Shown here piece after piece: positions 16,387 through 40,011 of a stretch of DNA of 64,000 nt (positions are counted from its first letter, which is position 1; each line of letters begins with the position of its first letter). Source of the DNA: Anaerolineales bacterium (lineage in GTDB: Bacteria; Chloroflexota; Anaerolineae; Anaerolineales; Villigracilaceae). Made by a program: the position numbers and the translations under genes. Where the stretch lies: contig CAKKRM010000001.1 of assembly GCA_919902735.1 (NCBI GenBank), positions 32,100-96,099 on the forward strand, read 5' to 3'. The notes beneath the pieces are model-generated. The model did not search any database and was not told the origin of the DNA. It saw only the letters and a list, made by a program, of their open reading frames with translations.

Positions 16387-16618
16387 TATGAAATTGAATT
16401 ACTTTGGTGGAGGATAGCCTGTAAAATCAGGCTATCCTCCACCAAATTTCAATTTTGGACATTGCTTTTGGTCATTCTTCGGAAAATGGTATATAATTTT
16501 CTTCGCTAAGAAATTATGATAATTTAAGGCGGATTTTCCACCTAACGCAATCAATATTTCATCTTCTGACATTATTAAAATATAAAATCTTGACTCCAGA
16601 TTTTCAAGGAGACTTAAA

Positions 16619-16846
16619 ATGTACGAGCAAATGACCACCTGTAAAAAATGTCAAAGCGCAAGGTCAACTGATCTCAAATCTCCTTGCAAGACGTGCGGCG
16701 CACACGCCACATTATTTGGTTATCTTTTTGATGATGAATTCAAAACAGCTATGTGGGCAACAATAATTGTGTCTGGTTTCATTATTTTTGCTTGCCTATC
16801 AGGTATGATTTTTCTTGCAGCACAAAGTTTTCTACTAACAAAATAA
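16619..16846 (+). CDS. Zinc-ribbon membrane protein, 75 aa
   Basis: CKKC...x12...CKTC (CxxC-CxxC) followed by the TM segment WATIIVSGFIIFACLSGMIFLAA. AAGGAGA SD. Confidence 0.6.
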   Translation: MYEQMTTCKKCQSARSTDLKSPCKTCGAHATLFGYLFDDEFKTAMWATIIVSGFIIFACLSGMIFLAAQSFLLTK

Positions 16847-16896
16847 GCCATAAAACCACAAACAGATTCCTTCACGCTAGTAATTGGAGATGAAAT

Positions 16897-17982: not shown

Positions 17983-18042
17983 TCAATAACCTTTACTCTC
18001 AATATTTCTCAAAAGATTATTCTTAGGAATGGAGAAAATGAA

Positions 18043-19026
18043 ATGACACCAATCGACATATATCCAGAAGAAACTAACATTGCCGTGTGGGGACCAACGC
18101 AATCAGGAAAAGATTGGTTATACAAAGGTTTTGCCAAGGAACTGGAAGATTACTATTCCCCACGTGCTGTAGATTTTGATTTTATATTACAGGAAAAACA
18201 CGGAACAGATCCCTATGTGCCAGTAATTGCTGAACCTCCAAAAGACATTGCTCCTACTACTTTTGGTGAGGATTACATTCATTCTTTTATTAGAAGACCA
18301 AAACCCGGTGTTATGAACAGCAATTATAGTGCAAGCATCTTAACCCACTACATAAATTTTCACAACAATCGAGGTGCTGACTTAGTGGCGGCAGTTCTGG
18401 ACCGAGACCGCTTTGAAGAAGCATATTTTTCTATAACAAAATCTCAATACCTATTAATCCTCCTTGATCCATTATTTGACAAATCATCAAAAGAAAAACT
18501 CGATTCTAATGAAATTATTCCGGTTCCTTCTGACGATGATGATTCTAATGAGTATCCCGATGTTGCCCTACAACCCGGTATTGGTAAAGATGAATACTTT
18601 AAAATATTGACCAAACTTCTGCAAACTCTTGCTGAAACCCAATCAGCGAGCAGGTATTTGGCTATTTGCATAACCAAAACTGATGCCATAAAAATAAAAA
18701 ACAATAATCCTTGGGCGCTGCTTGAAAGAGTTTTTGGAAATAAAATATCCCGGTTATTTAATAACTATCGCACTGTTTTCAATATGGAAATGTTTGCTAC
18801 ATCAGCTGCTGGATATACTAAAGTAAGAGGGATTCATCAACCTAACTTTGCTCATGGCAGACTTGTTGACGAAAATCATTGGGATCCATTCAACTGTGCT
18901 GCTCCCTTTTTTTGGATGTTTCAAAATAGGGAAATTGAACACATAAAGAGAACTTCAAACTTTTTGAATAAAGAGCATAATTTACGCAAATATATAAGGT
19001 ATCCACTCCCACGTCAAAACATCTAA
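18043..19026 (+). CDS. Small TRAFAC-type GTPase-like protein with atypical motifs, 327 aa
   Basis: G1 VWGPTQSGKD (Asp where Ser/Thr is expected), candidate G3 FHNNRG, beta4 YLLILLDP, G4 ICITKTD ([NT]KxD), G5 ATSAAG. GGAGAA SD. Confidence 0.6.
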   Translation: MTPIDIYPEETNIAVWGPTQSGKDWLYKGFAKELEDYYSPRAVDFDFILQEKHGTDPYVPVIAEPPKDIAPTTFGEDYIHSFIRRPKPGVMNSNYSASILTHYINFHNNRGADLVAAVLDRDRFEEAYFSITKSQYLLILLDPLFDKSSKEKLDSNEIIPVPSDDDDSNEYPDVALQPGIGKDEYFKILTKLLQTLAETQSASRYLAICITKTDAIKIKNNNPWALLERVFGNKISRLFNNYRTVFNMEMFATSAAGYTKVRGIHQPNFAHGRLVDENHWDPFNCAAPFFWMFQNREIEHIKRTSNFLNKEHNLRKYIRYPLPRQNI

Positions 19027-19097
19027 GGGTGGTATAGTGCAACAAATTATCTCATTTTCATCTTCGCTCTATAAAACGGATTAATAAACAAATACTC

Positions 19098-22000
19098 ATG
19101 CAAATTCGATATATAGAATACGGCAAAGTTTTCCTAACCACATCCAGAGGGGCAATGGAGTATACAGCACTGGATCGTTCAGATAACGAATTAGTTAAGA
19201 ATACTAAAAGCTTTTATCTACATGAAATTGCTACCTTCAACAAAAAATTCGATTCGCAATCTATTGAAAGCCCAGTAAATAAAAAGATTAGTATCGCGTT
19301 AATACCTTGGGATGATTCCAACTATCTTTTTATGCAACTACAACAAAGGGGAGAAGATGAATTTGTGGGTATTAGTGACACACGAGAAACTCAAAGATTA
19401 TTTAATCAAGCCCGTTTTGTTTTTATTAGTCAAAAAGAGATAACAAGCCGTCTTCCTAATAAAGTTGGGCTTGTGTCAAGCTTGATATATGAAAATCCAA
19501 AATATCCTGGCCAGAAAAAACTGCAAGATTATATTTATCCTCAACGCGGAATTACCCTCCAAAAGAATATTGAAGAAGGGAAAATATTACCAATTCCAGA
19601 TGACTACAACACAGAATTCCTAGCAGGAGTAGTAAATACTTTATTTGAAGGTTCACGACCTCGTAAAGAAATAAAAGGAATATTATTGCCACGTTTGCCA
19701 AAATCGCTCTTTATTACCGCGCCAATTGATCTCGACAAAAAAATACATCTTTTTGACATCATTCAATACTGGGTTTATCCTGCTTTAGGTATTATTTCAT
19801 TTGCATCAGATTATGTAATGAACCGCCAAGTTTCACTTTTTGTATGTCATGAATTTTCTTCTACAGATCAAGTAGACAACGATCGTGTTTTCGATGAAAA
19901 CACATTAAGAAATATGCAATTTGAAGGATATTTCAATGCGGTTTCTTCATTATCCAAAAACGAGCTGTATCACGAGACCCTCATTTACTATTTAAGAATT
20001 GATCTAACGCCAAAAAATGCCGTAACAATATTTAGATTAATCGAAACCGACTTCCCTTTTTCTATTGAAGAAATTATTAAAATAATTGTCGCCTACCTGC
20101 CTTACATAAAGGATAAACATCTTGAAAAGATTATCCAACGGCGCTTTAACACACAAGATCAACTACTGAAACTACGAGACATATTAACCAGAATACCTGT
20201 TAAAAAGCGAGTAATTATACTCGGACAAATTCTTAACAAAACTAATAATAATCTTGTAAGCTATTACCCTTTTCATTTATCCGCCATGACGGGAATTGAT
20301 ACCAGTAGCCAAGATGCAACTGCCATTCGACAGTTTTTAAGGGATTCGGTTATTCATAGTGATTCAGAGGATTTAGACCTAATTCAAGAAGACGATAAAA
20401 AGAGCCTTTATCTGGAGTTGATTTGGTCAGATTGCCAGCTGTCATCTGATGGAAAATTTATTACCTCTAATACTTACCTACAATTCGCGACCAAAACTAA
20501 TAATGAAATCAATGGGCAGCTGTTGCTTAAAGTTCTCATGGAAAGGAAAGAAGATAGTTTCTTCGAGTCAATTCGCATCCTCTTTTCCACTGAGGTCAGC
20601 ACTCAATTAATAAAACGAATCACCGAAGGACTGCAAAACAGTTGGAGTAGCTGGGAACTAGGAACAGTTTATAAATTTTGGCAGGTCGTGCCGGTAAAAA
20701 CTGCAGATATTTTCAATCTCTTATTAAGTTACTTATTACAAAACCAAGAATCCTCCTCAGATTTAATTGAAAACCCATTGATCTTTCGAGCCATGCTTAT
20801 TAATGGCCGAGATATTCTCAATAAATCGTCAAAGCAAAACCAAGCAACTTATCATAACGCTGAATTAACAAGATCTGATCAAACACAGCTTCCAATAAGG
20901 CTTTTGTCTTTATTAGAAAATAATATCATGCTGAACCTTCGAAGAGCGTGCTTGATTATTTCTCGCAATCTCACTAATAATAATGTTCTTTTTGCACACT
21001 GGTGGCTTATTGAAGAACTTGCTTATGCAAAAGAAGATATCCTAGTTCAGGATTATTCGGAATTAATTAAGTACTACAAATCAAATCTATTTCCCGACAA
21101 CGCTGAAGTTCCAAAGAAAGCTCTTTTTCTTCTAAGCGGCGGAGCATCGAAAGAGGAACTATCAATACAAAACTGCATACAAATAGACGACAGCCAAAAA
21201 TTGCAGGCATATCTAGACTCAATCTTTTATATAACGCTGGCAAATGTGTGGTTAGACTTAGAGCTTAAGATTCCGAGTGCTGATGTTGCCAGTCTAATTA
21301 TTAGACTGCCAGATGCCACATCACATGGTATTCTAAGAAAAATAATCCTTAATAAAAATAAAGCTCAAGCAGACGAAATCAAGGATTTAGATCCGCAAGT
21401 TGCTCTAGATTGGCTGAAGAACACCAAGCAATCTAGAATCTTGAACTCAAAAGGAGAAGATATACTTTACAAAACCTTATTAGATCTAAAAAAACCGACG
21501 GTTGAATTTATTCGTCACATGTTAATATTTGAATCAAGTATCGTCGATTCGGTTAGCACTTGGAAGGAGTATTCCAATAAGATTAAGAATATTTACCACA
21601 AAAAATGGAAATCTTCCACGCCTGATCCATTCATGAATAATTATATACAATTGACGTCTTTAATGAATGGCTCATTAAATATTAATAAATATCAAGAATT
21701 ATTAATGAGCATGGCTAACATCAATATTTCTAGTCCAGACAAAGATATTAATGTAGAGAAACGTAAGATTTTAGTTTCAACTATTTTTGAATTTATATAT
21801 GAAAATAAAGATGCTGACCATCCCTTTGACCAAAGAATATGTGCATTTCTAAATGCGAAGTCTTCCGACCTAGAACTTAACTATACAATTAAAGATTTGG
21901 ATGAAAAAAGAATTCAATTCTTTTCCGATTATGTGATTGATCATGGCGATTTTTTGGAAAACAAGATTAAGGTATTAATTGAAACTGAATATAGAAAACG

Positions 22001-22286
22001 ACATCATTACAATGAAATTATTCCTAACAGTAATTTACCATCAAAGCTGTCAAACACACAACGTCTTGAATCGCCAAGCCGGAAAGGAGAGAAGTCAACA
22101 AACGGTATTAATAACCCTGCCCAATCAGGTAGAAAACCTGCCAACACAACAGCTGTTTCCTGGCTTGAATTAATCTTATGGGGTGTACTGATACTTGTTA
22201 TATTTGCCATTATTGTTCAGATTTTCATTGCGTTTAATGATGGATTATCCAATGAGATTTTGAAGTGGTTTTATGGTCGCAGGTAA
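19098..22286 (+). CDS. Large mostly helical protein of unknown function with a C-terminal TM anchor, 1062 aa
   Basis: Long uninterrupted ORF. C-terminal WLELILWGVLILVIFAIIVQIFIAF preceded by a basic/polar low-complexity tract. No catalytic motif recognised. No SD at 19098; an alternative start at the MEYTALD codon is possible. Confidence 0.7.
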   Translation: MQIRYIEYGKVFLTTSRGAMEYTALDRSDNELVKNTKSFYLHEIATFNKKFDSQSIESPVNKKISIALIPWDDSNYLFMQLQQRGEDEFVGISDTRETQRLFNQARFVFISQKEITSRLPNKVGLVSSLIYENPKYPGQKKLQDYIYPQRGITLQKNIEEGKILPIPDDYNTEFLAGVVNTLFEGSRPRKEIKGILLPRLPKSLFITAPIDLDKKIHLFDIIQYWVYPALGIISFASDYVMNRQVSLFVCHEFSSTDQVDNDRVFDENTLRNMQFEGYFNAVSSLSKNELYHETLIYYLRIDLTPKNAVTIFRLIETDFPFSIEEIIKIIVAYLPYIKDKHLEKIIQRRFNTQDQLLKLRDILTRIPVKKRVIILGQILNKTNNNLVSYYPFHLSAMTGIDTSSQDATAIRQFLRDSVIHSDSEDLDLIQEDDKKSLYLELIWSDCQLSSDGKFITSNTYLQFATKTNNEINGQLLLKVLMERKEDSFFESIRILFSTEVSTQLIKRITEGLQNSWSSWELGTVYKFWQVVPVKTADIFNLLLSYLLQNQESSSDLIENPLIFRAMLINGRDILNKSSKQNQATYHNAELTRSDQTQLPIRLLSLLENNIMLNLRRACLIISRNLTNNNVLFAHWWLIEELAYAKEDILVQDYSELIKYYKSNLFPDNAEVPKKALFLLSGGASKEELSIQNCIQIDDSQKLQAYLDSIFYITLANVWLDLELKIPSADVASLIIRLPDATSHGILRKIILNKNKAQADEIKDLDPQVALDWLKNTKQSRILNSKGEDILYKTLLDLKKPTVEFIRHMLIFESSIVDSVSTWKEYSNKIKNIYHKKWKSSTPDPFMNNYIQLTSLMNGSLNINKYQELLMSMANINISSPDKDINVEKRKILVSTIFEFIYENKDADHPFDQRICAFLNAKSSDLELNYTIKDLDEKRIQFFSDYVIDHGDFLENKIKVLIETEYRKRHHYNEIIPNSNLPSKLSNTQRLESPSRKGEKSTNGINNPAQSGRKPANTTAVSWLELILWGVLILVIFAIIVQIFIAFNDGLSNEILKWFYGRR

Positions 22287-22775: not shown

Positions 22776-23444
22776 ATGGGATGCTTCCTTTGCATGACGG
22801 AAAGAGATTTTGCTCAACTTACATCCTCTATGCTCGCAGGTAGTAGCGTTGTGGGTTTAGGGTCTGGTTGGGTTGGCATCCAAGTACACGGGACAGTTGC
22901 ACAAACCATTGGGCAACTTGCTGCAAACATTCGTAATTCATACCCTACTACAAGAATTTCAAATCCAACGGAAATTACATATCTGACATTGGCTGAGGTG
23001 TCTCCAAATCTTGCTAATTCATGGCTTAAATCCGAAGTCCGTCAGACTGCAATAGAATTTGGCAAGACAGAAGCACAGCAAATTGCTGCAGAAATTTATC
23101 AAAAAGGTGGATTCACGATAGACAACATTACGAATAGCACAGGGGTCGATATCAGTGCCCGCCATAGTGGCCACAATTTTAGTATAGAAGTGAAATCCAC
23201 CTCTACAGATAAATCTATTGGACAACTATTAGGGGAAGGCTATGGTTTTAGACAGTGTAGTGATCCCTGGTTAGAAAAAGTGGGAGTGAATCCAGGTGAA
23301 ACAACTGTTAATGGAATTATCATCAACACTGTGACCGAAACAGTTTCTTTTTGGCAACGCGTAGATAGCGGCGCAAAAGATTGGCGATGCATTTGTCGGG
23401 ATATTCCTTTACAAGATGCCTTACAAAATCAAAAGCAAAAATGA
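22776..23444 (+). CDS. PD-(D/E)xK (restriction-endonuclease fold) protein, 222 aa
   Basis: AGGAG SD 8 nt upstream. Motif order E (FGKTEAQQIAAE) ... GVDISARHSGHNFSIEVKST gives the D...E-x-K core. A Gly-rich N-terminal ~100 aa of unknown function. Confidence 0.6.
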   Translation: MGCFLCMTERDFAQLTSSMLAGSSVVGLGSGWVGIQVHGTVAQTIGQLAANIRNSYPTTRISNPTEITYLTLAEVSPNLANSWLKSEVRQTAIEFGKTEAQQIAAEIYQKGGFTIDNITNSTGVDISARHSGHNFSIEVKSTSTDKSIGQLLGEGYGFRQCSDPWLEKVGVNPGETTVNGIIINTVTETVSFWQRVDSGAKDWRCICRDIPLQDALQNQKQK

Positions 23445-25108
23445 GTACTTCAACTAAGAAATCAATATCCAAGCATACAAACCAAAATGTTGACGTATTA
23501 ATTCAATCTCTTAGTGAATATGTCCAAGTAACTTCAGGTTGCCCACAAGAGCGTATACAGACTTTTGAGGAAATGTTTGATGTCCATCTGCCAAAAGATT
23601 ATCGGGAGTTCCTTTCTAGTTATGGAGCAGTTGCTGGAAATCAGTTTTCAATTTTTGGATTAGGTAATAATCAAACAGGTATACAGTTATCTGATCTCTT
23701 GCTCTTGCTTCGATTGCAATATTTGACATTTCCACTAAATTTGGTACCCGTAGAAGATTTGGGTAATGGAGAAATGGCTTGTTTGGATTGTTCCTCAGGC
23801 GGATCATCTTCGAGTTTGGTACTTAGAATTTCTCTAGCAAACGAGAAATCACTAGCAGATGTTCCAATCCTTGCAACCTCTTTCGAAGTATATTTATATA
23901 ATCGGTTAAGTGATTTCAAGCAAGGAATCAACCAATTTAAAGAAGGTTTGACTGTTTTAGAACAACGAGTTAAGGAATTCCAAAGGACAACTGATTATGA
24001 TCATGCCGCTGGAGGAAAACTTCCTCGTAATCATATTTGGCGGCCTTACCGCTTCTGCGTTCAGGATGTTTTACTTGGTGCTACCGTTGTCCAACATGTT
24101 AGGGGTGACAATTATTTGAACGTGGATGTTTTTCTCACAGAAGAAGTTCCCCCCTATGAACCTGGTAGCGGAGTACGCGGCTTGCTTCTATTCTTATTGT
24201 GTGAAGCGTATAAGTGTGGTGGAACTATGGAGATTCGCTTCACAACAAATGTGGAAGGTGGAAAAGTTCCCAAAAAGATTCAAGATCTTGCTCTGCGATT
24301 GAGCGTATCTATCCCTGAAGAAAACCTTTCTAGCGGAGTATTGACTCCACGTGATTCACGGTCATTGTTTCTTGCATTAACCCCACTCTCTTCTCAATCA
24401 CTGACCAGGATAGCCGGCTTGAAATTATCCATTGAACGGTGCTGTTATGTGGTTCAAAAAGGAATTTGGAGCATCTCTGAGGCTGAATTAATCCTAATGT
24501 GTGCAACCAATCCGGATCGACTTTTCATGGGCGGAGCTGCAGCTGAACAACGACTTTTATATGCTCAAGACGTCTATTTTGGGAGGCTAGCCTTACTCGG
24601 CGGAAATCTAGATCGCGCGCTAGCTCGCCCAAAATGGGAACCATCAGAATCAAACCTGGAAGTTGAAGACGATGAACGTCAAATTGAAATTGAATGGGAT
24701 ACTTCGATGATTGCAAAGCAGTACCGATGTTCTCCATCGCCTAGTGAGGTGGCAAAGAATCTAGTTATTCCTTGGATAACCAAAGATTCGAGTGTCTCGT
24801 CCGAAATCCCTTTTGAGCAATCATTTGCAGTTCTTGTTCGTGCTCGGGATTTCAGTGAAATGCGCCTATTCTTGAATCAAGATATTCAACTTGCCCAAGA
24901 TTATGGCAAACAGCTAAATATCCCAGTGTTTATTCTTCTGCCATATGATTTTTATGATTTAGATTTTCTAACGGAACAAGAACAATTAGAAGTTTGCCTT
25001 CTTGCTTCTCAATCCAATGTTGGTTTATTGATATGTCCAGAAACGACTCTTTCTATGGATACGCAAGTTCAGCAACGACTGAGCTCGAGTAGGATTATAC
25101 GAGAATGA
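23441..25108 (+). CDS. SUKH (SMI1/KNR4) domain protein with a ~400-aa C-terminal extension of unknown function
   Basis: Start reassigned from 23381 to ATG 23441, which forms an ATGA overlap with the upstream stop. The SUKH pattern is ERIQTFEEMFDVHLPKDYREFLSSYGAVAGNQFSIFGLG ... LVPVEDLGNGEMACLDCS. Confidence 0.65.
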   Translation: MSTSTKKSISKHTNQNVDVLIQSLSEYVQVTSGCPQERIQTFEEMFDVHLPKDYREFLSSYGAVAGNQFSIFGLGNNQTGIQLSDLLLLLRLQYLTFPLNLVPVEDLGNGEMACLDCSSGGSSSSLVLRISLANEKSLADVPILATSFEVYLYNRLSDFKQGINQFKEGLTVLEQRVKEFQRTTDYDHAAGGKLPRNHIWRPYRFCVQDVLLGATVVQHVRGDNYLNVDVFLTEEVPPYEPGSGVRGLLLFLLCEAYKCGGTMEIRFTTNVEGGKVPKKIQDLALRLSVSIPEENLSSGVLTPRDSRSLFLALTPLSSQSLTRIAGLKLSIERCCYVVQKGIWSISEAELILMCATNPDRLFMGGAAAEQRLLYAQDVYFGRLALLGGNLDRALARPKWEPSESNLEVEDDERQIEIEWDTSMIAKQYRCSPSPSEVAKNLVIPWITKDSSVSSEIPFEQSFAVLVRARDFSEMRLFLNQDIQLAQDYGKQLNIPVFILLPYDFYDLDFLTEQEQLEVCLLASQSNVGLLICPETTLSMDTQVQQRLSSSRIIRE

Positions 25109-26379
25109 ACCAATTTCCAATTATGATTTGTATCGTTCCAGAGAGTTGGTGGGGATCAGGTTCTCCGCAGCCAGAATTTGTACAAATGATATTTGAAGCA
25201 TTGGCTATTGAACGTAGGCTACCAAAAGGTGTTGACGTTGAAAAGGAGCGAGCAAGATATACAATATGTTCTCGGCAGATAGAACAGATTGTTCGTAAGA
25301 CGAGTCGAGTCCCTCGCGAGGCTGGTCAGTATTCGCAAATCATTCGATCTGGAAAAGCAGCCATTGGAAAATTGGATAAGGGCTATCTAGTTTTGCTGGA
25401 TAAGTTTGTTAATGCTGTAGCTGAAGATCCAGCTTGGATAGAATACCGGATTGGCGCGAGTTTTTTTCCTCCCACTAATCAGAATGCAACCTATTCCTTA
25501 GCCAAACATATTAAAGGATTCGAGTGGCTAGCCCAGAAGTTGAAACTTGATAAGGATCCTCAAATCAGTCGCCGGTTAAGCATTCTTCGGTGGGCAAACG
25601 AACAAAAATGCGGAATAGTGGAAATACTTGATTTCTACCCAATCGAGTCTTCTCAAATATCAAACAAGATTAGATCGTCGCCTCACCCTATCAAACGTTT
25701 AGATGAGTTAGTTGCATATAAATCCTCATCCAAAGAAAATTTGTTCTCTGTTGACGAAAATCAACGCGTAAGTAGCCAACAAAGGCGATCGCAGCGCGTA
25801 GCAATGAAAACAGAAATAGAGCGTGCAATTCGCTATGATCAGGCTGTTAATATCAATAATTACAGCAATCAGGTTATAACCGATGTTTTACATGATTTTG
25901 TTTTCACTCAGGAGGCTAGAAAACCCCACCTTCTGAAAATTGTTTATGAAGATGGTTCACAAGGACGTCCATTTCCAATCTTTAGTTTACCTCAGCCAAA
26001 ACCAGAGGTAACCAAGCAGTTCGATTCGATCCCGCCCTTACGAGTAGCAATGCTGAGTATTCGGCATTTGGAGATGGATCGAGAAGTTGATATGGCTTGG
26101 TTTCGTAATACAGAGGCATCATTACGTCGCACATGTTTTGCTGATACCGATTTCTTTTGTTACAAGGAAACCTTGCGCCAAATCGACACACTTGGAGAGA
26201 AGGAAATGGTATTAATTCATTTATATCAGACAGGCCTTGAACCAGCAGTTGTGGGGTTTTACCGCGCCCTCGTTGAATTTCTTTCCAGAAAGGATCCTAA
26301 GAAAGCCCGCGTGGCAGTAATTCCCCTTTATTTCCTTGGATCGGGTTTGGACTATCGCAATGGATCCCTTTGGGTATAG
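25105..26379 (+). CDS. Hypothetical protein, 424 aa
   Basis: ATGA overlap with the upstream gene. No motif recognised. Confidence 0.7.
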   Translation: MNQFPIMICIVPESWWGSGSPQPEFVQMIFEALAIERRLPKGVDVEKERARYTICSRQIEQIVRKTSRVPREAGQYSQIIRSGKAAIGKLDKGYLVLLDKFVNAVAEDPAWIEYRIGASFFPPTNQNATYSLAKHIKGFEWLAQKLKLDKDPQISRRLSILRWANEQKCGIVEILDFYPIESSQISNKIRSSPHPIKRLDELVAYKSSSKENLFSVDENQRVSSQQRRSQRVAMKTEIERAIRYDQAVNINNYSNQVITDVLHDFVFTQEARKPHLLKIVYEDGSQGRPFPIFSLPQPKPEVTKQFDSIPPLRVAMLSIRHLEMDREVDMAWFRNTEASLRRTCFADTDFFCYKETLRQIDTLGEKEMVLIHLYQTGLEPAVVGFYRALVEFLSRKDPKKARVAVIPLYFLGSGLDYRNGSLWV

Positions 26380-26401
26380 CTATTAGGAGAAGCTCAAGAT
26401 T

Positions 26402-29400
26402 ATGGCTAAAGAATGGGTAGCGGTTTGTAAAGATTGTAATAAGCCTTTTGGTTATTCCAATGCATCATTTCAAGCAGACATAACGAGAGGTTTCTCGGCA
26501 CCTGAGCGTTGCCCGGTTTGTCGCGGTCGGCATAGTAAAGAAGTTCGTTCAGTTGGTCTATCTCATTTTCAATTAAAACCCATTGGAAATTTGCCACCAG
26601 GATTGATTCTTCCTCCAGGACGCTTGGGAAAAATCTATCATGACTTGCCGCCTCATCGGCTAACAACACTTATTTCGAGCTTTGAAAAATACCGTTTTGG
26701 AATTACAGAATTGGATATTCTCCGTGTATTTGCTAGCTTAGGAGCGAGGTTCGAGATTACACCTAGAATCCAGACCCTGCTTATAGAAGAATCAACCCAA
26801 ATGTCTGAAACCGAAGTCAGAAAGAATAGTGATATTGAATTCAGAAATAATCAGGTTGTTGTTGTTGAGGGGCCGACAGGATCGGGAAAATCTACATTGC
26901 TTCCATATAGATTGATGGCTCCACCCCAGGAAATTACCGATCCTCTCTTCTTTACTCGAAGGGGGCAAATTGTTATTACTCAACCGCGTGTTCAAGCTAC
27001 CAGAGGTATTCCAAAGTTTGTCGCTGAACAACTGCATGGTTCTAGTCTGGGACCAGGTTTCGATGTCGGCTTTAAGCATCACAATGCCGCTGAAACCGAT
27101 AGGCGTAATCTATTAGTATTTGTCACCGATGGAACATTAATTAACTGGATTATTAACGAACAACTCGGTAACCTAAGCCTGATTATGATAGATGAGGCTC
27201 ATGAGCGCAGTCTGAATATTGATTTAATACTCGGCTTACTCAAGGCGCGGTTGCCACGCTATCCAAACTTGAAACTAATTATCGCTAGCGCAACCATTGC
27301 TGCCCAAGAGTTTATTACCTATTTTGGTGGTTCCGAAAGAGTGGGCCATTTAGTGTTTCGAGGGATATCCAAACCTGTCGAGGAGCATTTCTCTCCAAAA
27401 CCAATTCTTGACTATGAAGGCCTACATAAAAAATCAGCTCAGGCCATCGACATTGTAGCTTCCAAAGCAGTGTCAGACCGAGTACTCGAGTTACTTGAGG
27501 AAATCATTAAAGAGGGTCCGACTCGTGAAGGGGATATTCTTGCCTTCCTTCATAGTGAGAATAGTATTGACCTCGCTCATGACCAAATTAAGGAAAGTAT
27601 TCAAAAAAACAGAAAATTTATATCCACTGAGGTTTTTCGGCTTTACAGATCATTGCACCAGACAGAGCAAGATAAAGTATTGATGAATAAAGCCAAAGTT
27701 ATAGGAAACAAAATAATTGACCTCATGCGTCGTAATGTTAAGGGAAAAGGTAAAGCGGCAAGGTCAATGCTCGCATTAGTGCTCGATGAAAGAACTGCTA
27801 GAGATATCGCCGATCTACTTCGTGATACAGGAAAGAATGATAACAAATATGGTCTAGAGGAATTAACAATAGAAATTGCCCACGAGGAGATGAGCAAAAC
27901 TGACCTTGGTAAGCTGAAAAAGCATTTGATAATGAATAATCAAGCCTACCTTTTGATTGCCACTTATAAAGCCCATGCCAAAATTAATTTTACTGTTCCG
28001 CAAGTTCAGATAATTGAAGATCGGCGTGTGATCATTTCTACTAACGTGGCAGAAACATCCCTAACTGTGGATGGAGTTGTATATGTAATTGATAGTGGAA
28101 TCATAAAGCAAACCACTTGGGACCCTAAAACTCTTACACAGAGGCTTGTGTCAAAAGCGCACAGCAAAGCAGGATGCAGACAGCGAAGAGGTCGAGCCGG
28201 CAGAATTCGAGCTGGCCATGCATATTATCTTTATACAGAAGATCAGTTTGCTAAATTTGAAGAGCATACACAGCCAGAGATTAAGCGTGCACCTTTGGAA
28301 GCGGTAGTCCTTTCTGCAAAGGCGGCTGGTGTCGATGATATTGCAAAGTTTGATTGGTTTCAGCGCACTCCAGAAATGGACGCTGAACTCCAACGCTCGA
28401 GGTCAGCTTTGGTGGTACGTCATATACTGGATCCTGATGGGGATATCACTGAGCAAGGTTTGGAATTGCGTTCTTTGGCGCTGGATATCCAAACGGCGAA
28501 TTTTCTCAAGAATGCTGACCGCTTCTCTTGCGCTTTGGAAGCCGCTACTCTCATACCCATACTTTTGATGAAACAATCACTCTTAGGCGGATTGTTCCTT
28601 TGGGATCCTAATTGGGATGCTAGCACTCGATGGGAAGTAAAGAAACGTCAATACGGGTTAAGAGGTGAATGCGAAGATGACCTAGCACTTTGTATGAAAG
28701 TGTTTGCTGGCTGGGAATCCGCTGGTAAAGATGATCATAGTCAAGAAGTCTGGGCGCGCAATTTCATGGTTAACCATCAGATGCTATCAAATTACATCCT
28801 GCCAGAGCGATCAGCACTACTAGATCGTCTAGCTATTGCCACAAAAGGAGAGGCTCTCAGACCAATCGATTTTGACCTGCTTGATCGGTTGAGGATAGTT
28901 TTTGCTTATAGTTATCCAGATCAATTGGGATCGTCGGAGCAATATACAATTGATTCCGAATCGATTTGCTTTGGTCAACAGTTGCCTGCAGTAGTTTTCG
29001 GACGCCGTATCCCTTTTCGTACTGCAATAGAAGGCCAACCAGATTTTCGCGTGTCATTAATACTAAGGCTTGATCCAAACTGGGGAAACTTGGGTCAGCT
29101 TGCTCCTCTTCAATTGGGTCGGTTGATATCGAGAGTCACGCGCAGTAATAAAGGTGAAGAATTATATAGGTCTCCCATTTGGGATCAGTTGTCTTTGTTA
29201 AAAGCACCGATAGGAGCAAAATTTAACTGTAAGATTACTGCAGAAAAATCGAATCATGTCAATTTAACAAAAATGATCAAAACACCAAATGATGTCTACC
29301 GCAGACCCAAAGGAATCTACATTTTGGAGGAAGAGGCAGAGGAAGAACTCGAAGTTGATGGTGCCGTCCGTTCGCAAGGAAAGTGGTCTCGATATATAAA

Positions 29401-31873
29401 TTACGAAAGTCCTGAAGAAGAGTTGGAACAAGAATTACGGATTGAAGACAATTCAAAAATACGAGTAATTTGTCTTCCTACACCTGACACCTTGAATAAT
29501 GTTGACATCTATCTCGATGATGAGTTGGGGTTAACCGAATTGTCACTTTCAAAGCAAACTACTGCCTATTTCGAGGTCGCACCAGGAAATCATAAATTAG
29601 CAATTGTTCCGTTCGGCCAAACAGTTAATGTTAGTCCAATAGCAACGCTAAGTTTAGAAGAGCTAAGAAGTGAAGCGGAGTATTCCATAATACTAGAACC
29701 TTGGAATTCCAAGAAATTGATGCACGGGCGCGTCTTCGAAGACCATCATCAAGTTCTTACTCGTAATGGAGCTGAATTACGATGGATACCTGCCGGGCGA
29801 ATCGAAAAAGTGAATGTATATTTGAACGGACATTTTTCCCCGATCGGTAAGTACCGTTTGATAGATAACCGCCGTCCTGTTTTGCTGGAAATCTACAAGC
29901 ATGAAGGAAAAGAAAAAGGTGAAGAACCATTACTGAAGGATAAATTAGCTATAATGAATGGCGAGAGTAATTCTCTTCTTTTATTTTCGGAAAACGGTAG
30001 TAAAAAAATCCAGTATTCAATTATTTCTGAAATAGATGTTAAACGTCCCGGGGTGATGCGCTCGGAGGATTCCTCACTACCCCTTGTTGCCCAACTACCT
30101 GATTGGTTTTCATCTCCTAGCAAACTGAATTCTTTAGATGCAATTATTGATAGTTATGATTTCGGCGGTGATCACTCTTCCATCATTCGTATTTTACCGA
30201 ATTCCCTTTTTGATAAATTTAGTAAGATGTATAAAAAAGATCAGACAATTGAGATATGTCCTTATATAACCGAGTCGTATCCGGAGCGTAGCCGAGCTTC
30301 TTTGATTGTTACAGAATTAACCACACATCTTGAGATTGCTGTTGATGGTGATGAGGTGCTGTTCTCAGATTATCAATCTGAAAATGCGTTGGAGGAATTG
30401 AGAAAATTCCAACGGATCTCATTTATGATTGATAATATTGATAATGCACACGAAAGAATCTACCTTACAAGGTTGCCTCTCTTGGATGCAGAACTATCCA
30501 AATGGGTCGATAATGAAAAGAAAATATCAGGGGTAGGTGTAGTAGTAGATGTGATTCTCCAGGGTCCTCGGTTGGGATTAATAATTGTGTTTGATTTAGG
30601 TGGAATCCCCGGCTTGAGTGTTTTGGTCCGGGCAGATCGAGTGGTACAAAGTTCACTGAAACCATTGGGAGAATATCATATTGGGGAACAAGTCAAGGCC
30701 CAGCTTAATTTCACAGGGGGAAAAGTGAGAGGGGCCGGTTGGTCGGAAGAAATGCAAGAGAATGTTTCAAACAGGATGCCAAAGGAAATGACGATACAAA
30801 ACGATGGAGGAGAATTCGTTCTTCGTATTGAGCGCCCTATGAGATATTTCGAGCTTGAAAAGCTAATAAATCTTCATTCCAGTCGAATTTACAAAGAAGC
30901 AATGCGCGCTTTATATCGAAGTAGCAATCTTCCTCAAATCGATCTGATAGATCCTCAGCGCATAGCAATGATTGATAAACGTTATCCTTTAGGTGTAATT
31001 GTAGAAAGCTGCATAATCAAAAGAATTATAAAAGACAATGTTGAATTAATAATAGAAGAGCCGAATATTTTGGGAAGTATACATATCAGTGAATGGTCCA
31101 ATACATTTATAGATGATTTGGATAAAGTAGCGAAGACGGGAGATGTAGTTGCCGCAAAGGTTCTTCGGCGAGAAGACAATGGGTTCTTGCGTTTAAGTAG
31201 AAAACATGCTGCGCTCATAGCATACCAGGTAAATGCGAGATATCGAAGTGTAGTGCAAACAGTTGATGATAATGGAGCAGAAATTTTATTGATAAAAACG
31301 GAAAATGGTCAAGTTATTCAACAACCGTTAAGTGGATATGCTCAGAAGTTCCAGTTAAAGTTTGTCCCGAAAGACTCGCCGGATGAATTTCATCCAGAAC
31401 AATTTCTAAAACCAGGACAAGAAGTTATTTGTCGAATACTAAGTATTGATCAAGAAAATGGTCGCATTTTACTTACATTATGGCGTTTCTATGAAGTTAC
31501 GCTCGATGTACTTGCACAAACTAAAGTTGGCTGGTATTTTCAAGAACATCAAAAAAATCGAATAGAACTTGAACGCACAACTGAGACTCAAATTGTTATT
31601 GATAAGGAATTGAATCAAACAGGTAAAATAACTTTATATTCAGCTACTCTCTCAAACATTCAGCGAGCTGTTTCATCTCTGAAGCAAAACTTGAGTGGTT
31701 TACAGGAACGTCGCCAAATAATCATACCTGCTCCGCAACCGCCGAAGGTACGTCCCAAACTTGTATCAGCGCCTGTAATAAGGAGAGTCCGCCTACCCCA
31801 AGTTGCAAGAGAAGAGCCCAAGGGTTGTTTGACAGCTTTATGGGACTGGATTAAGGGTAAATTGAGGCTATAA
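26402..31873 (+). CDS. DEAH/RHA-family (HrpA-like) helicase with N-terminal zinc ribbon and C-terminal S1-like OB folds, 1823 aa
   Basis: CKDC...CPVC ribbon. Motif I EGPTGSGKSTLLP, II IMIDEAHERS, III IASAT, V STNVAETSLTVDGV, VI QRRGRAGR. HA2-like ...LVVRHILDPDGDITEQGLELRSLALDIQTANFL... S1-like GDVVAAKVLRREDNGFLRLSRK and GQEVICRILSIDQENGRILLTL. Confidence 0.9.
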   Translation: MAKEWVAVCKDCNKPFGYSNASFQADITRGFSAPERCPVCRGRHSKEVRSVGLSHFQLKPIGNLPPGLILPPGRLGKIYHDLPPHRLTTLISSFEKYRFGITELDILRVFASLGARFEITPRIQTLLIEESTQMSETEVRKNSDIEFRNNQVVVVEGPTGSGKSTLLPYRLMAPPQEITDPLFFTRRGQIVITQPRVQATRGIPKFVAEQLHGSSLGPGFDVGFKHHNAAETDRRNLLVFVTDGTLINWIINEQLGNLSLIMIDEAHERSLNIDLILGLLKARLPRYPNLKLIIASATIAAQEFITYFGGSERVGHLVFRGISKPVEEHFSPKPILDYEGLHKKSAQAIDIVASKAVSDRVLELLEEIIKEGPTREGDILAFLHSENSIDLAHDQIKESIQKNRKFISTEVFRLYRSLHQTEQDKVLMNKAKVIGNKIIDLMRRNVKGKGKAARSMLALVLDERTARDIADLLRDTGKNDNKYGLEELTIEIAHEEMSKTDLGKLKKHLIMNNQAYLLIATYKAHAKINFTVPQVQIIEDRRVIISTNVAETSLTVDGVVYVIDSGIIKQTTWDPKTLTQRLVSKAHSKAGCRQRRGRAGRIRAGHAYYLYTEDQFAKFEEHTQPEIKRAPLEAVVLSAKAAGVDDIAKFDWFQRTPEMDAELQRSRSALVVRHILDPDGDITEQGLELRSLALDIQTANFLKNADRFSCALEAATLIPILLMKQSLLGGLFLWDPNWDASTRWEVKKRQYGLRGECEDDLALCMKVFAGWESAGKDDHSQEVWARNFMVNHQMLSNYILPERSALLDRLAIATKGEALRPIDFDLLDRLRIVFAYSYPDQLGSSEQYTIDSESICFGQQLPAVVFGRRIPFRTAIEGQPDFRVSLILRLDPNWGNLGQLAPLQLGRLISRVTRSNKGEELYRSPIWDQLSLLKAPIGAKFNCKITAEKSNHVNLTKMIKTPNDVYRRPKGIYILEEEAEEELEVDGAVRSQGKWSRYINYESPEEELEQELRIEDNSKIRVICLPTPDTLNNVDIYLDDELGLTELSLSKQTTAYFEVAPGNHKLAIVPFGQTVNVSPIATLSLEELRSEAEYSIILEPWNSKKLMHGRVFEDHHQVLTRNGAELRWIPAGRIEKVNVYLNGHFSPIGKYRLIDNRRPVLLEIYKHEGKEKGEEPLLKDKLAIMNGESNSLLLFSENGSKKIQYSIISEIDVKRPGVMRSEDSSLPLVAQLPDWFSSPSKLNSLDAIIDSYDFGGDHSSIIRILPNSLFDKFSKMYKKDQTIEICPYITESYPERSRASLIVTELTTHLEIAVDGDEVLFSDYQSENALEELRKFQRISFMIDNIDNAHERIYLTRLPLLDAELSKWVDNEKKISGVGVVVDVILQGPRLGLIIVFDLGGIPGLSVLVRADRVVQSSLKPLGEYHIGEQVKAQLNFTGGKVRGAGWSEEMQENVSNRMPKEMTIQNDGGEFVLRIERPMRYFELEKLINLHSSRIYKEAMRALYRSSNLPQIDLIDPQRIAMIDKRYPLGVIVESCIIKRIIKDNVELIIEEPNILGSIHISEWSNTFIDDLDKVAKTGDVVAAKVLRREDNGFLRLSRKHAALIAYQVNARYRSVVQTVDDNGAEILLIKTENGQVIQQPLSGYAQKFQLKFVPKDSPDEFHPEQFLKPGQEVICRILSIDQENGRILLTLWRFYEVTLDVLAQTKVGWYFQEHQKNRIELERTTETQIVIDKELNQTGKITLYSATLSNIQRAVSSLKQNLSGLQERRQIIIPAPQPPKVRPKLVSAPVIRRVRLPQVAREEPKGCLTALWDWIKGKLRL

Positions 31874-35002: not shown

Positions 35003-35488
35003 TCACTCGTTACCTTCAGATCGCAGAATTCGAGCCAGCGTGCGCGGATCGAGATCGCGCCACCAGGAAATCTCGTTCAGGAGCAGGTGATATTCCCAGA
35101 GCAAGCCTTGCATGGGTAAAGACTCAAACCATCTCTTCAAGCCATTTTTGAGACGATCATCGATACTTCCTTCGCCATGAATAGCAACTTCCACGCAATC
35201 TTGGTCTACAGTCTTCACCCTGCTGCTATGTGATTTCAGCCATTCTAAAAATTTTTGCAGGCGCATCTCATCCAACCGCACAGCTTGACTGGATATATCC
35301 GAAACCATTTGTTCGATCAGAATTTGCATATCATTCATCGTTCCCATCCATTGTCGCGCCGGGACATGACCCAGGCAAAATATAAGACTCCCAATGCAGC
35401 AAGCACACAGGCCAGCGTGCCACCGCAGAACAAGAACAAAAAACGTAGGATGGTCCCGATCATCAAAACCCCAGCCTTCGGTCGTCAT
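35003..35488 (-). CDS. Hypothetical protein (start uncertain)
   Basis: The ORF 35003..35620 overlaps the upstream gene. The most plausible start is MTTEGWGF (35488) or MGTMNDMQ further in. The C-terminal part looks like a soluble helical protein. Confidence 0.4.
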   Translation of the reverse strand: MTTEGWGFDDRDHPTFFVLVLRWHAGLCACCIGSLIFCLGHVPARQWMGTMNDMQILIEQMVSDISSQAVRLDEMRLQKFLEWLKSHSSRVKTVDQDCVEVAIHGEGSIDDRLKNGLKRWFESLPMQGLLWEYHLLLNEISWWRDLDPRTLARILRSEGNE

Positions 35489-37916
35489 CCTGGGGCGCAG
35501 GTTGCGAAACCCTTGCTTCCTGGTTTTCCAAACGTACCGCAAGGAATTCATCCAACAGTTTGGATAGTGCCGGCGGAAGCATTTCCTCCAAAGCTTTAGA
35601 TGCTTTTTCCTGCCAGCCATCGGCGGGCAGATAATCTTCAGGATGAGAAGCGATCACTTCCTCGATCAATGCCTTCACCCGATTACCATCTGCACGTGGC
35701 AAGGGCTTGATCTGAGTCAAGGTCGGCGGCTGCCAACGACCGTCAATACGCGCACGTAACCAACACTGCAAGGAAGGTAGGTCGAGAGTCATGTTTCCAT
35801 AGCGCACAGTGGAACTCAACGTGGCGCGGATCAAGTCGGCATCTTCCGGGTCCGGTGAGAAGAACATCTGCGTGGATGTATTGGCGAGCATGGCCTGTAC
35901 GACCGGCTCCATGCCTTCGACCTTACGCATCATAGACAGCGATTGCGCCAGCACAAACATGCGCGCGCCGAATTTGGCGCCCTCAGCCAACATGGACTCA
36001 AGCCGCATCCCCGAACCGATCTCCTGGGCTTCATCTACGATGAAATAAAAAGGAACGGGTTTCTCCAATGTTGCCTTTCGATAAGCTGCATCGAAGACAT
36101 TGTATAAAACGGAAGCAGTCAGTCTTGCTCCTTCGCGTCCCATCTCACCCGATGGCAAACGTAATACGATCCAGGCTTTCTCTTCGATCCATTGGTTCAT
36201 ATCCACGAATCGCTCTTGGTGCATGGCTGAGAATAACCAGGGAGAGAGTTCCAACGCCATCACTTTGGAGAGCACTGGGCTGATCACTTCTGTGACCCAG
36301 CCTTGACTCCACTTATCTCCTTCGCCGGTTTGTCCAAGCAAGGCATCCAGGGCAAGCGCACCCATGCGTTCCCCAGGAGGAAGCAATGCCATTGCCTTAT
36401 GTCGCCATGATTTATTGAACGCCATGAAGACGACATGTAGCAGTCCCAACCCAGCATCCGGATGGTTTTGATTCCAGACATGCGCGATGCGAAATAATCC
36501 AAGCAAGGCGGCCTGCATACGCGGACCCCAGTAGTCCTCCCAGATACGCCGGCCAATTTGAATAATGGCATTGCCTGCCCAAGTGAATTCGGGCACGGCC
36601 AGTAAATTCAATGGAATGACCTGTGGTTGGTCTGGCGTGATGATCCGTAATCTTTTGATCGCCTTCTGACGTTGTTCTTCCGGCAATTGTGCAATCGCGT
36701 CGAGGAAGGCGTCCGCCAGTGAGACATGCGGGTCGGTCAGGAAGATACCGGGTGCATCATCACCGCGAGCAAGTAGTTGCTCCAACATGGCAAAGACAAA
36801 GGACGATTTACCACTACGGCTGCCGCCTGTTGCCATTCCATGTCCATCGGGATCCACACCAACCAGCTCTCCAGTAGCCACACTATTTCCAATTTTGAAT
36901 CCAGCTTCCAGTAAGGGTTGCGACGGTGGTGGCGCCGGCACTTCCTGCCAGACTGCGCGATCCAACAGCCCACTGCCTTCGCCCATTTGAAGCGGAGCGA
37001 TCAGGCCGGCGAGTTCACCTGCTGGCAATGGAAAACCATGTTCCCGAATTTCAGGCCACAGATTTGCAAGCGTCCTCCATGATTGTTCACCTGCAAATAA
37101 TGGGAGATCAATTGGAGAAGATAAAGTCAGCGCAACTTTTAGCAATGGCTCTTGAATTCGCTTTTCAAGAATTTCTTTTGGGATCGAACGCCATTCCAAC
37201 CAATTGCGAATTCCAAAGGCAGAAGCAATACAAAGTGCGCCGCCTGCAACCACAATCAGGATTTCAGGAAGAGGATTGAACCAGCCTGCACTCCAGATGC
37301 CTGCACTGATGCCGGCCATGATGATCCCGAGGAACAATATGGCGCGCAGGAAATCCAACTGCATCCCCCACGGATTCGGAGTATTGTTCTCCACGCCGCC
37401 TTCGGTTCCATATGAATAGGATGAGAGTGCCCGCAGCTTTTCCTGTAACTGCCCATCATTGCCAAGCAGCCAGAGCCTGAGACCTGCTTCTTTTCCATCA
37501 CGAGCCGCACTGATCAGCCGACTGCCAATGGCCAACATTGGATCACTGTCTTTTGCGGAGGCAATCAGGGATGGCAAACGATTGGAAGAATGGAAGGCAT
37601 ACCCAGAGCCACGCAGGTCCACCGTCCCCAACTTTCGCCACCGCGAGTGTTGACCTGTCATCGCTGCCCAGGCTTGCACGACTCCATCAGCGATATTCGG
37701 TGGGAGATATAAACGAACCCGCAATCCTTTTGGCGATGCAATCCATTCGATCACTGCTGGAAAAGGAAGCTGCCCGATCCAACTCATGACTTGAGCACGC
37801 AGATCGTCCAATGCGTGTGGGGCAAAGAGCAATTCCCAACCCTGCCATTGTCCATTACAAAGAGGGCAGTCAGTAGGACTGGATGCAAATTCAAAACCAC
37901 ATTTCATACAAATCAT
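35463..37916 (-). CDS. VirD4/TraD-like coupling-protein-type ATPase with N-terminal zinc ribbon and TM helices
   Basis: Start moved to MICMKCGF (ATG 37916..37914), which forms an ATGA overlap with the upstream stop. CMKC...CPLC ribbon; TM helices LRAILFLGIIMAGISAGIW and ILIVVAGGALCIASAF; Walker A ATGGSRSGKSSF; Walker B FYFIVDEAQEI. Confidence 0.55.
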   Translation of the reverse strand: MICMKCGFEFASSPTDCPLCNGQWQGWELLFAPHALDDLRAQVMSWIGQLPFPAVIEWIASPKGLRVRLYLPPNIADGVVQAWAAMTGQHSRWRKLGTVDLRGSGYAFHSSNRLPSLIASAKDSDPMLAIGSRLISAARDGKEAGLRLWLLGNDGQLQEKLRALSSYSYGTEGGVENNTPNPWGMQLDFLRAILFLGIIMAGISAGIWSAGWFNPLPEILIVVAGGALCIASAFGIRNWLEWRSIPKEILEKRIQEPLLKVALTLSSPIDLPLFAGEQSWRTLANLWPEIREHGFPLPAGELAGLIAPLQMGEGSGLLDRAVWQEVPAPPPSQPLLEAGFKIGNSVATGELVGVDPDGHGMATGGSRSGKSSFVFAMLEQLLARGDDAPGIFLTDPHVSLADAFLDAIAQLPEEQRQKAIKRLRIITPDQPQVIPLNLLAVPEFTWAGNAIIQIGRRIWEDYWGPRMQAALLGLFRIAHVWNQNHPDAGLGLLHVVFMAFNKSWRHKAMALLPPGERMGALALDALLGQTGEGDKWSQGWVTEVISPVLSKVMALELSPWLFSAMHQERFVDMNQWIEEKAWIVLRLPSGEMGREGARLTASVLYNVFDAAYRKATLEKPVPFYFIVDEAQEIGSGMRLESMLAEGAKFGARMFVLAQSLSMMRKVEGMEPVVQAMLANTSTQMFFSPDPEDADLIRATLSSTVRYGNMTLDLPSLQCWLRARIDGRWQPPTLTQIKPLPRADGNRVKALIEEVIASHPEDYLPADGWQEKASKALEEMLPPALSKLLDEFLAVRLENQEARVSQPAPQDDDRRLGF

Positions 37917-39667: not shown

Positions 39668-39678
39668 GATATAAAAAA

Positions 39679-39703
39679 ACACGGACGGGTGGTCCGTCCG
39701 TGT
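39679..39703 (-). terminator. Intrinsic-terminator-like hairpin plus T7 run (minus-strand sense)
   Basis: acacggacgg / gtggt / ccgtccgtgt. On the minus strand the hairpin is followed by TTTTTTT (39673..39679). Confidence 0.5.
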
Positions 39704-39854
39704 CGCTAATTAATGCTCTTGTTTTCCAAGGAAAATTCTCTACAAGGGTGAAGCATCCTTCAATGTTATTCTGTTAATCCCTCACGCTAAACCTAATCTC
39801 CTTCCGCTCCATATAACTTATGGATTCGACTATAATCACCTATCTGTGATTCTA

Positions 39855-39917: not shown

Positions 39918-40011
39918 ATTGTAAGCTACAAAGAAATCAGCTTTTTCGCTTCGTTGAGAATAGTTGCTAAATAACTATTTGTTCATGGTGATATTTGGAA
40001 GGAGTAATAAC

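Follow-up and report, generated by a model that had tools for sequence, protein, structure and literature searches.

Polymorphic toxins carry at the N-terminus a domain for trafficking or secretion (for instance RHS, LXG, PAAR, WXG or filamentous haemagglutinin) and at the C-terminus a variable toxin domain, and TsiV proteins constitute an immunity family for VRR-NUC nucleases. SUKH (SMI1/KNR4) proteins are immunity proteins of polymorphic toxin systems, and neither of the two papers defining them as such (Zhang, Iyer & Aravind 2011, PMC3113570; Zhang et al. 2012, PMC3482391) links SUKH to helicases. Here we analyse a 64,000-nucleotide stretch of an Anaerolineales bacterium (Chloroflexota; contig CAKKRM010000001.1, positions 32,100 to 96,099), hereafter called the window, in which a gene with an N-terminal SUKH domain (the head) lies in a four-gene operon, preceded by a putative nuclease gene with a conserved N-terminal peptide (the tag) and followed by an unannotated gene and a giant DEAH/RHA helicase gene. 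Judged by gene neighbourhoods and sequence comparison, this operon is a member of a real, scattered and horizontally mobile four-gene cassette. As in SUKH immunity systems, a bona fide SUKH head follows a nuclease-type gene, and TsiV is exchanged for it in relatives; unlike in those systems, the head is fused to a core of ~370 amino acids (aa) within a helicase operon, and the upstream protein carries no trafficking or secretion domain. The operon does not qualify as a polymorphic toxin-immunity pair of the classical kind: gene 1 has no recognisable trafficking domain, Pfam domain or signal sequence, and the likeness of its conserved N-terminus and variable C-terminus to polymorphic toxins is formal only.

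Among helicase-centred systems, Hachiman (HamA/HamB), Zorya (ZorD), Druantia, Gabija and Mokosh follow a logic similar to that of the cassette, in which a large superfamily 2 (SF2) helicase is paired on mobile DNA with a nuclease, here a putative one of PD-(D/E)xK type; Mokosh includes an RNA-helicase-type protein. The cassette differs from all five in its DEAH/RHA helicase, its two core proteins without a family and its separate, tag-bearing putative effector, and from Hachiman, Zorya, Druantia and Mokosh in the immunity-type heads found on gene 2. A comparison with PADLOC-DB v2.0.0, a check proposed in the initial annotation, gave no informative model match; gene 4 returned weak matches at the level of the P-loop only (mad8, mad3 and LmuB). 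No description of the cassette as a SUKH-helicase, DEAH or S1 defence system was found in the literature, of which subscription-only papers were not searchable, and it has apparently not been described so far.

The operon is composed of four plus-strand open reading frames (ORFs) encoding 222, 555, 424 and 1823 aa. These ORFs and their junctions, on which the initial annotation had built its operon, were verified: genes 1 and 2 overlap by an ATGA (23441-23444), as do genes 2 and 3 (25105-25108), and the helicase ATG is preceded by a 22-nt spacer containing an AGGAG Shine-Dalgarno sequence. The longest ORF for gene 2 begins 60 nt before this ATG (23441), at a TTG (23381) that lies within gene 1; public gene calls start at the ATG, giving 555 aa. 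A gene 3 profile, scanned against one genome per species, detected, among 185,579 species genomes, 44 loci in 44 species of about ten phyla, including Chloroflexota, Planctomycetota, Thermodesulfobacteriota, Bacteroidota, Patescibacteria, Actinomycetota, Acidobacteriota and Pseudomonadota as well as one Methanomicrobiales archaeon, and further copies were found in metagenomes and plasmids. Culturable hosts include Rhodococcus sp. KRD162, Nocardia noduli, Sinomonas cellulolyticus, Paenarthrobacter (plasmid pB) and Streptomyces NBC_00637. Of the 44 loci, 39 had a gene 2 homologue immediately before gene 3, and a helicase homologue came immediately after it in all loci with enough sequence, the exceptions to the 2-3-4 order being contig ends and a Ktedonobacterales variant. 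The proposed examination of gene neighbourhoods found genes 2, 3 and 4 adjacent and in the same order in 44 unrelated genomes, far beyond chance. No conserved flanking genes were detected beyond close relatives, except for a ~740-aa fifth gene in one clade, indicating that the cassette moves as a unit. Moreover, natural fusions of the gene 2 core to gene 3 were present in at least seven representative proteins (P0235, P0237, P0253, P0249, P0240, P0290 and P0320), which indicates that both work together physically.

Gene 2 had been described as a SUKH domain carrying some 400 extra residues. The SUKH call held, with three Pfam models above their gathering cut-offs over aa 32-152 (SUKH_5, 42.9 vs 27; SUKH_6, 43.4 vs 27; SMI1_KNR4, 40.1 vs 25.4), a Foldseek match of the head to YobK (2prv; E 1e-6, template-modelling (TM) score 0.83) and matches of the family profile to 2prv and 2icg. 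The "extra" part is instead the conserved core: a core-only profile retrieved 435 clusters (50% identity) at E<=1e-3. Gene 2 had 112 homologues. The head in its relatives is mostly SUKH and otherwise TsiV, YbjN, an unrecognised domain, a tandem SUKH or nothing, and the mean pairwise identity among SUKH-bearing orthologues was 31% in the head vs 66% in core domain I. By these sequence measures, the SUKH head is a dispensable, exchangeable accessory and the ~370-aa C-terminal part is the conserved core. An AlphaFold2 model of the whole protein had a mean predicted local distance difference test score (pLDDT) of 90.9 and a predicted TM score of 0.84, and the invariant residues of the core are R201, R204, D209, G260, W343, E409 and W445. 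The core belongs to no NCBIfam family and had no Pfam match even at E 10 when 18 core-only members were scanned, and hhalign found no homology between its C-terminal domain and the first-gene families.

As a sequence family, gene 1 turned out to be confined to a small sub-clade. It had only five homologues, with no tblastn or blastp match outside this sub-clade and no Pfam or NCBIfam family; the homologues looked up (3/3) each lay directly upstream of a SUKH-gene 3-helicase set. The view first drawn from tblastn and blastp, that gene 1 is not conserved across loci, was overturned by the analysis of its N-terminus. When the first-gene and other ORFs of related loci were called mechanically, an ORF starting with M-[G/A]-C was found upstream of gene 2 in 31 of 45 non-redundant loci, the background frequency among start sites being 0.46%; near-variants (MxQCCG, MPxGC) were seen in several of the others, and the first gene of both plasmid copies of the cassette bears the tag. 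The tag, a cytoplasmic-type peptide of 15-25 residues without a signal sequence, conforms to M-[GA]-C-x-[LN]-x-x-[TS]-x-x-[DE]-[FYI]-x-x-[LI]. Its start is preceded by a ribosome-binding (Shine-Dalgarno) site, and its Gly/Ala and Cys codons vary synonymously, indicating that selection acts on the protein. Alignments with hhalign between otherwise unrelated first-gene families were driven mainly by this peptide. In three independent cases (L015, P0224 and P0271) the tag is fused directly to the gene 2 core, in place of the head, which ties it functionally to that core. Across the loci, the system-wide conserved part of the first gene, as read from the aligned sequences, is therefore the tag peptide and not the nuclease.

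Beyond the tag, gene 1 of the window is composed of a linker and a putative PD-(D/E)xK-type nuclease domain. Nucleases of this superfamily have an αβββαβ core in which the catalytic D...(D/E)xK residues sit on neighbouring strands. Of the E...D...E-x-K nuclease core initially proposed, D125, E138 and K140 are invariant in the six-member gene 1 family, although the corresponding residues are replaced in most actinobacterial versions. In the PDB, the family profile matched best to 1gef, the Hjc resolvase, whose catalytic E/D/ExK residues were covered by the alignment (E 0.11), and the sub-threshold Pfam matches (Mrr_cat, UPF0102, NOV_C and Cas4) were all to PD-(D/E)xK families. The domain also aligned with the first-gene nuclease of the Candidate Phyla Radiation (CPR)/Pseudomonadales and Nocardia loci (hhalign probability 89%, E 2e-6), and the first-gene product of the Streptomyces locus is, judged by eye, apparently a nuclease. 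Other first-gene proteins have 258-378 aa and no recognised fold, or are short with hydrophobic tails. The first genes of a further group, cluster B, show a D...DxK pattern by eye but were rejected as nucleases, their hhalign alignment to the gene 1 nuclease domain not being significant.

Gene 3, which had been called unrecognisable, indeed had no match in Pfam, NCBIfam or PADLOC, and its 79 homologues were all unnamed and devoid of Pfam domains. The C-terminal of its two domains is the part retained in distant relatives, and the invariant residues are D283, S318, R320, H321, D325, C352, Y374, T376 and G377. CARF sensors are (pseudo)dimeric Rossmann-like folds with a pocket for a nucleotide, in systems that produce a nucleotide signal. 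The AlphaFold2 model of gene 3 (mean pLDDT 86.6) consists of two α/β domains, predicted to be Rossmann-like, which may recall the SAVED/CARF proteins of CBASS and type III CRISPR systems (Cap4, Cap5, Csm6, Cam1); its top PDB folds were nearly all SAVED/CARF but weak (Cap5 8fm1 at E 0.08, Csm6, Cam1 and Cap4; E 0.08-1, TM score 0.15-0.25). Unlike in SAVED/CARF systems, hhalign revealed no internal repeat between the N- and C-terminal domains, and Pfam and NCBIfam scans found no recognisable cyclase or other signal-producing enzyme in the operon. Nor did hhalign detect homology between the domains of gene 3 and those of gene 2.

The fourth gene had been annotated as an HrpA-like DEAH helicase with S1 folds. 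Both the DEAH/RHA core and the S1 domains were confirmed, but orthology to HrpA or HrpB was not: scores against TIGR01967 (243.6 vs 722.75 bits) and TIGR01970 (192.1 vs 546.15) fell far below the cut-offs, the core alone matching. PDB sequence matches to Prp43, DHX15 and HrpA (E about 1e-59 to 1e-51; aa 146-430 and 540-~820) cover both RecA domains and the downstream winged-helix/ratchet region and place the protein in the DEAH/RHA family, whose motifs I (GxGKS/T), II (DEAH) and VI (QRxGRxGR) read here GPTGSGKS, MIDEAH and QRRGRAGR. Motifs II and VI are retained across the helicase family, and motif I was matched in the main clade, the only one that our regular expression for it fitted. The cassette helicase is like HrpA/HrpB, Prp43, DHX15 and DHX36 in its RecA domains, winged-helix/ratchet region, motifs I, II and VI and RNA-binding accessory domains; unlike HrpA/HrpB, it has an S1 array, a DUF4397-like segment, ~110 aa inserted between the RecA domains and a zinc-ribbon-like motif at the N-terminus, invariably occurs together with genes 2 and 3, and is patchily distributed. 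The zinc-ribbon-like motif is found at the same position across the main clade. Within the C-terminal array, Pfam S1 was above its cut-off at aa 1539-1601, NCBIfam bS1 models matched aa 1324-1384, 1523-1643 and 1663-1707, and bS1 chains were also matched in the PDB; relatives carry at this position five S1 repeats plus Jag_N, or KH, and RNA-binding modules always go with the helicase. A sequence search of aa 850-1330 against the PDB gave no match.

Coordinates are collected in Table 1. Several loci depart from the arrangement of the window. In the Thermodesulfobacteriota/Kuenenia clade, the fifth gene, with a weak TPR match only, directly follows the helicase. Three Ktedonobacterales loci (L030, L031 and L036) encode a reduced variant, with the C-terminal domain of gene 3 alone (207-209 aa) followed by a protein of ~1070-1100 aa, which has three S1 repeats in L030, the one scanned; neither helicase motifs nor a recognisable gene 2 core were found in these three loci. 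In Patescibacteria and Pseudomonadales (L025, L028, L029 and L033) about 1 kb separates gene 3 from a short helicase of 863-1202 aa, and in L025 this gap (11074-12110) holds two small minus-strand ORFs. The helicase gene of Candidatus Loosdrechtia (L002/L018:11432-14693) is cut to 784 aa and followed by a Y1 (IS200-type) transposase; this copy is probably inactivated.

The operon lies in a region of low GC content (0.34-0.43 over 12-32 kb vs about 0.50-0.53 in most of 34-64 kb), in agreement with the AT-rich island and conflict-type neighbours noted initially; STAND-TPR ATPases, a type IV coupling protein and a KAP NTPase surround it. On the minus strand, 333-14841 holds two tandem paralogous gene pairs resembling a duplicated NTPase conflict module, accompanied by uncharacterised proteins of 441, 463 and 831 aa. 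Directly upstream of the operon and in the same island, 15727-22286 (plus strand) encodes unannotated proteins of 219, 361 (weak SH3_3), 327 and 1062 aa; these four genes accompany the cassette in no other locus, and the window's own neighbours recur nowhere else. The genes at 35463-43890 appear to be what is left of an integrative or conjugative element. Beyond them, 43986-54246 includes a possibly DnaE2-like, DnaE-type polymerase of 1005 aa with PHP, pol III alpha and HHH domains. The contig comes from a Hainich groundwater metagenome, and the 90%-identity cluster of the CpaF-like protein contains an Anaerolineales metagenome-assembled genome, a hint to the host. The window holds no tRNA and no member of an Rfam family, and promoter and terminator scans of the operon region stayed at chance level.

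Table 1. Features of the operon, of its surroundings in the window and of one gene in related loci.
Feature	Position	Strand	Residues	Remarks
Gene 1	22776..23444	+	222 aa	
N-terminal tag of gene 1	22776..22850	+	aa 1-25	MGCFLCMTERDFAQL..., Cys3 invariant
Putative PD-(D/E)xK domain of gene 1	23058..23375	+	aa ~95-200	
Candidate catalytic residues of gene 1	23148-23150; 23187-23189; 23193-23195	+	D125; E138; K140	
Gene 2	23441..25108	+	555 aa	From ATG at 23441; SUKH head, long linker helix, three-domain core
SUKH (SMI1/KNR4) head of gene 2	23513..23905	+	aa ~25-155	Swappable accessory
Conserved core of gene 2	23996..25105	+	aa 186-555	
Gene 2 core, domain I			aa ~191-276	β-meander and helix; most conserved segment of the system
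Gene 2 core, helical domain			aa 277-400	
Gene 2 core, C-terminal α/β domain			aa 405-555	
Gene 3	25105..26379	+	424 aa	Two α/β domains
Gene 3 N-domain	25105-25650	+	aa 1-182	α/β
Gene 3 C-domain	25768-26376	+	aa 222-424	α/β; joined to the N-domain by a disordered linker
Gene 4	26402..31873	+	1823 aa	Giant DEAH/RHA helicase
Zinc-ribbon-like motif of gene 4	26426..26521	+	aa 9-40	CKDC...CPVC
DEAH/RHA core of gene 4	26819..28951	+	aa ~140-850	~110-aa insert separates the RecA domains
DUF4397-like segment of gene 4	29483..29797	+	aa 1028-1132	β-rich; Pfam 25.6 bits, cut-off 30.6
S1/OB RNA-binding repeat array of gene 4	30359..31531	+	aa ~1320-1710	
AAA_16+TPR STAND-like proteins	333-3458; 7970-11098	-	1041/1042 aa	One per tandem pair
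AAA_22/AAA_16 ATPases	3462-4709; 11102-12349	-	415 aa	Second member of each tandem pair
Type IV coupling protein	35463-37961	-		Overlaps AAA_10 ATPase gene
AAA_10 ATPase	37913-39682	-		Overlaps type IV coupling protein gene
KAP-family NTPase	39964-43890	+	1308 aa	Second AT-rich patch, GC 0.36-0.37
Flp/Tad pilus genes (CpaF-, CpaE-, CpaB-like)	47560-51364			
Fic protein	53059-54246			
Fifth gene in related loci	L019:6541-8769; L020:16105-18348; L021:12402-14624; L035:13008-15215		~740 aa	

We tentatively favour, without regarding it as established, the view that the cassette is a mobile conflict or defence module in which an RNA-binding helicase complex controls a tag-tethered, head-masked effector. 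The comparisons across loci indicate a core complex of the gene 2 core, gene 3 and the giant DEAH/RHA helicase, which is catalytically intact and bears S1 or KH domains. Such a system would act inside the cell, in defence against phages or plasmids or in competition between mobile elements. The helicase complex would patrol or sense RNA, and the first-gene product would be the effector, a PD-(D/E)xK nuclease here and in several clades; in others it ends in a hydrophobic tail or is of no recognised type. Through its N-terminal peptide the effector would be tethered to the gene 2 core and, where a head (SUKH, TsiV or YbjN) is present, this would mask the effector and keep it inactive until an encounter with a trigger RNA led to ATP-driven remodelling by the helicase, by which the effector would be freed or activated. 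Gene 3, a predicted two-domain Rossmann-like protein with a weak resemblance to SAVED/CARF, could be a ligand-binding or regulatory subunit. The notion of a restrained effector, already present in the initial annotation, receives indirect support from the swappable immunity-type heads and from a first gene that is variable and often appears to encode a PD-(D/E)xK protein. The settings of the cassette also speak for mobility and conflict: two copies are on plasmids, and neighbours in other loci include VirB4/TraC and PrimPol genes, TIR-STAND and transposase genes, a type III CRISPR locus and a Prok-E2/JAB/ThiF set. There is a functional analogy with RIG-I-like and DHX RNA sensors, in that an SF2 RNA helicase with RNA-binding modules could couple recognition to an immune output; unlike for those sensors, there is no specific homology beyond SF2, and the sensor role here is a putative one.

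A more specific version, about which we are doubtful, is that of a hitherto unrecognised kind of prokaryotic RNA-surveillance immune machine, in which the helicase and the two new families would detect foreign or aberrant RNA and deploy interchangeable effectors recruited by the tag and checked by immunity domains. A metal site held in common, or else a Cys3 modified covalently or by an acyl group, might then take part in recruitment; a Cys or His is often found 3-4 residues after Cys3, making either arrangement possible. That the cassette represents a mechanistically new kind of system we likewise consider somewhat unlikely.

Several observations weigh against the conflict or defence module. 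The effector role is not universal, as most actinobacterial first-gene products are a degenerate version with the D/ExK residues replaced and some tag::core fusions have no effector domain. CPR loci combine an intact nuclease with a gene 2 without a head, so masking by an immunity-type head cannot be the sole control, and the co-variation of head type with first-gene family is confounded by phylogeny. In PADLOC-DB v2.0.0, genes 2 and 3 had no match and gene 1 matched ZorD (Mrr-like part) at E 0.027. The predicted resemblances of gene 3 to SAVED/CARF (E 0.08-1) and of the gene 2 core to GNAT are leads only. Neighbours within 3.3 kb are heterogeneous, with several housekeeping and few defence genes; the defence-island signal is weak, and the contexts favour mobile elements over defence islands. 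No viral relatives were found in a gene 3 profile scan of IMG/VR or by tblastn of phage genomes. The proposal of a novel defence system made at the outset is thus upheld in the co-conservation of genes and the lack of informative PADLOC matches, and is weakened by the few defence genes nearby and the absence of phage relatives.

Among other explanations, a toxin-immunity or addiction module, in which gene 1 would be the toxin and SUKH the antitoxin, post-segregational killing would stabilise plasmids or integrative and conjugative elements, and the helicase-gene 3 part would be regulatory, is in our view unlikely. It would fit the gene order of toxin-immunity pairs, a nuclease followed by an immunity-type domain, and the presence of the cassette on plasmids and next to conjugation genes. 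The strongest conservation is found, however, in the large core proteins rather than in the toxin or immunity parts, many loci have no head domain or no nuclease catalytic residues, gene 1 has no secretion or trafficking domain, and a toxin-antitoxin pair would need far less protein than the about 2,800 aa that the helicase, the core and gene 3 add up to.

The cassette might instead serve the life cycle of the mobile element itself, in processing or protecting transferred nucleic acid, in establishment in the recipient or in counter-defence, and not the defence of the host. Some neighbourhoods would fit this: among 137 neighbour ORFs, type IV coupling proteins (3), the most recurrent specific family, and integrases (2) were among the most recurrent families. 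In the window, the coupling protein and AAA_10 ATPase lie 3.6-8 kb from the cassette, the copy on a Paenarthrobacter conjugative plasmid comes directly after mobC-relaxase, and a VirB4/TraC gene adjoins the cassette in L003. The second plasmid copy is on a Streptomyces linear plasmid, both plasmids being actinobacterial; megablast of the operon retrieved no close DNA relatives among plasmids. We nevertheless judge a role in the element's life cycle improbable, since at most loci no conjugation gene was seen within 3-6 kb and several copies are surrounded by ordinary genes of the chromosome, conflict systems typically have such heads of immunity type and a first gene that is effector-like and variable, and conjugation handles single-stranded DNA while the accessory domains here are RNA-binding.

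A third possibility, protein modification or maturation, would have the gene 2 core and/or gene 3 act on the Gly/Ala-Cys of the tag (by acylation, a thioester or a metal-bridged link), with the helicase providing RNA-coupled regulation. It would account for a Cys3 and peptide that are invariant while the rest of the first protein varies, for the tag fused in cis to the core and the second Cys/His near Cys3, and for the many invariant polar residues of the core and gene 3, and the core did have GNAT-like Foldseek matches, although weak ones (2fl4, E 0.014, TM score 0.15/0.43; GCN5; E 0.014-0.1). The core was rejected as a GNAT acyltransferase, with no Pfam GNAT match or other sequence-level signal and, on inspection, no conservation of the Q/RxxGxG/A loop that usually binds the acyl-CoA pyrophosphate (the acetyl-CoA loop motif). 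A docking role of the tag accounts for the same data without chemistry, and we know of no bacterial precedent for such a modification, to which we would give little credence.

Lastly, an HrpA-type accessory machine for RNA metabolism or ribosome quality control without a conflict role, suggested by the HrpA/Prp43-like helicase core and the bS1-like C-terminus, is very improbable and the rival least compatible with the patchy, mobile distribution, given the presence in only 44 of 185,579 species genomes, patchily and across domains with unconserved flanks, the carriage on plasmids and in an AT-rich island in the window, and the variable first gene and head domain.

Should the cassette be a defence or conflict system, as we tentatively favour, prokaryotic immunity would be found to use DEAH/RHA RNA helicases, to which the DHX proteins of the spliceosome and of innate immunity belong. 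The gene 2 core and gene 3 would define two widespread, so far unannotated protein families, and it would emerge that a conserved machine can be fitted with interchangeable effectors in a new way, by means of a short N-terminal cysteine peptide and clamps taken from the immunity domains of toxin systems. The presence of the cassette in culturable actinomycetes and on a conjugative plasmid makes these proposals directly testable.

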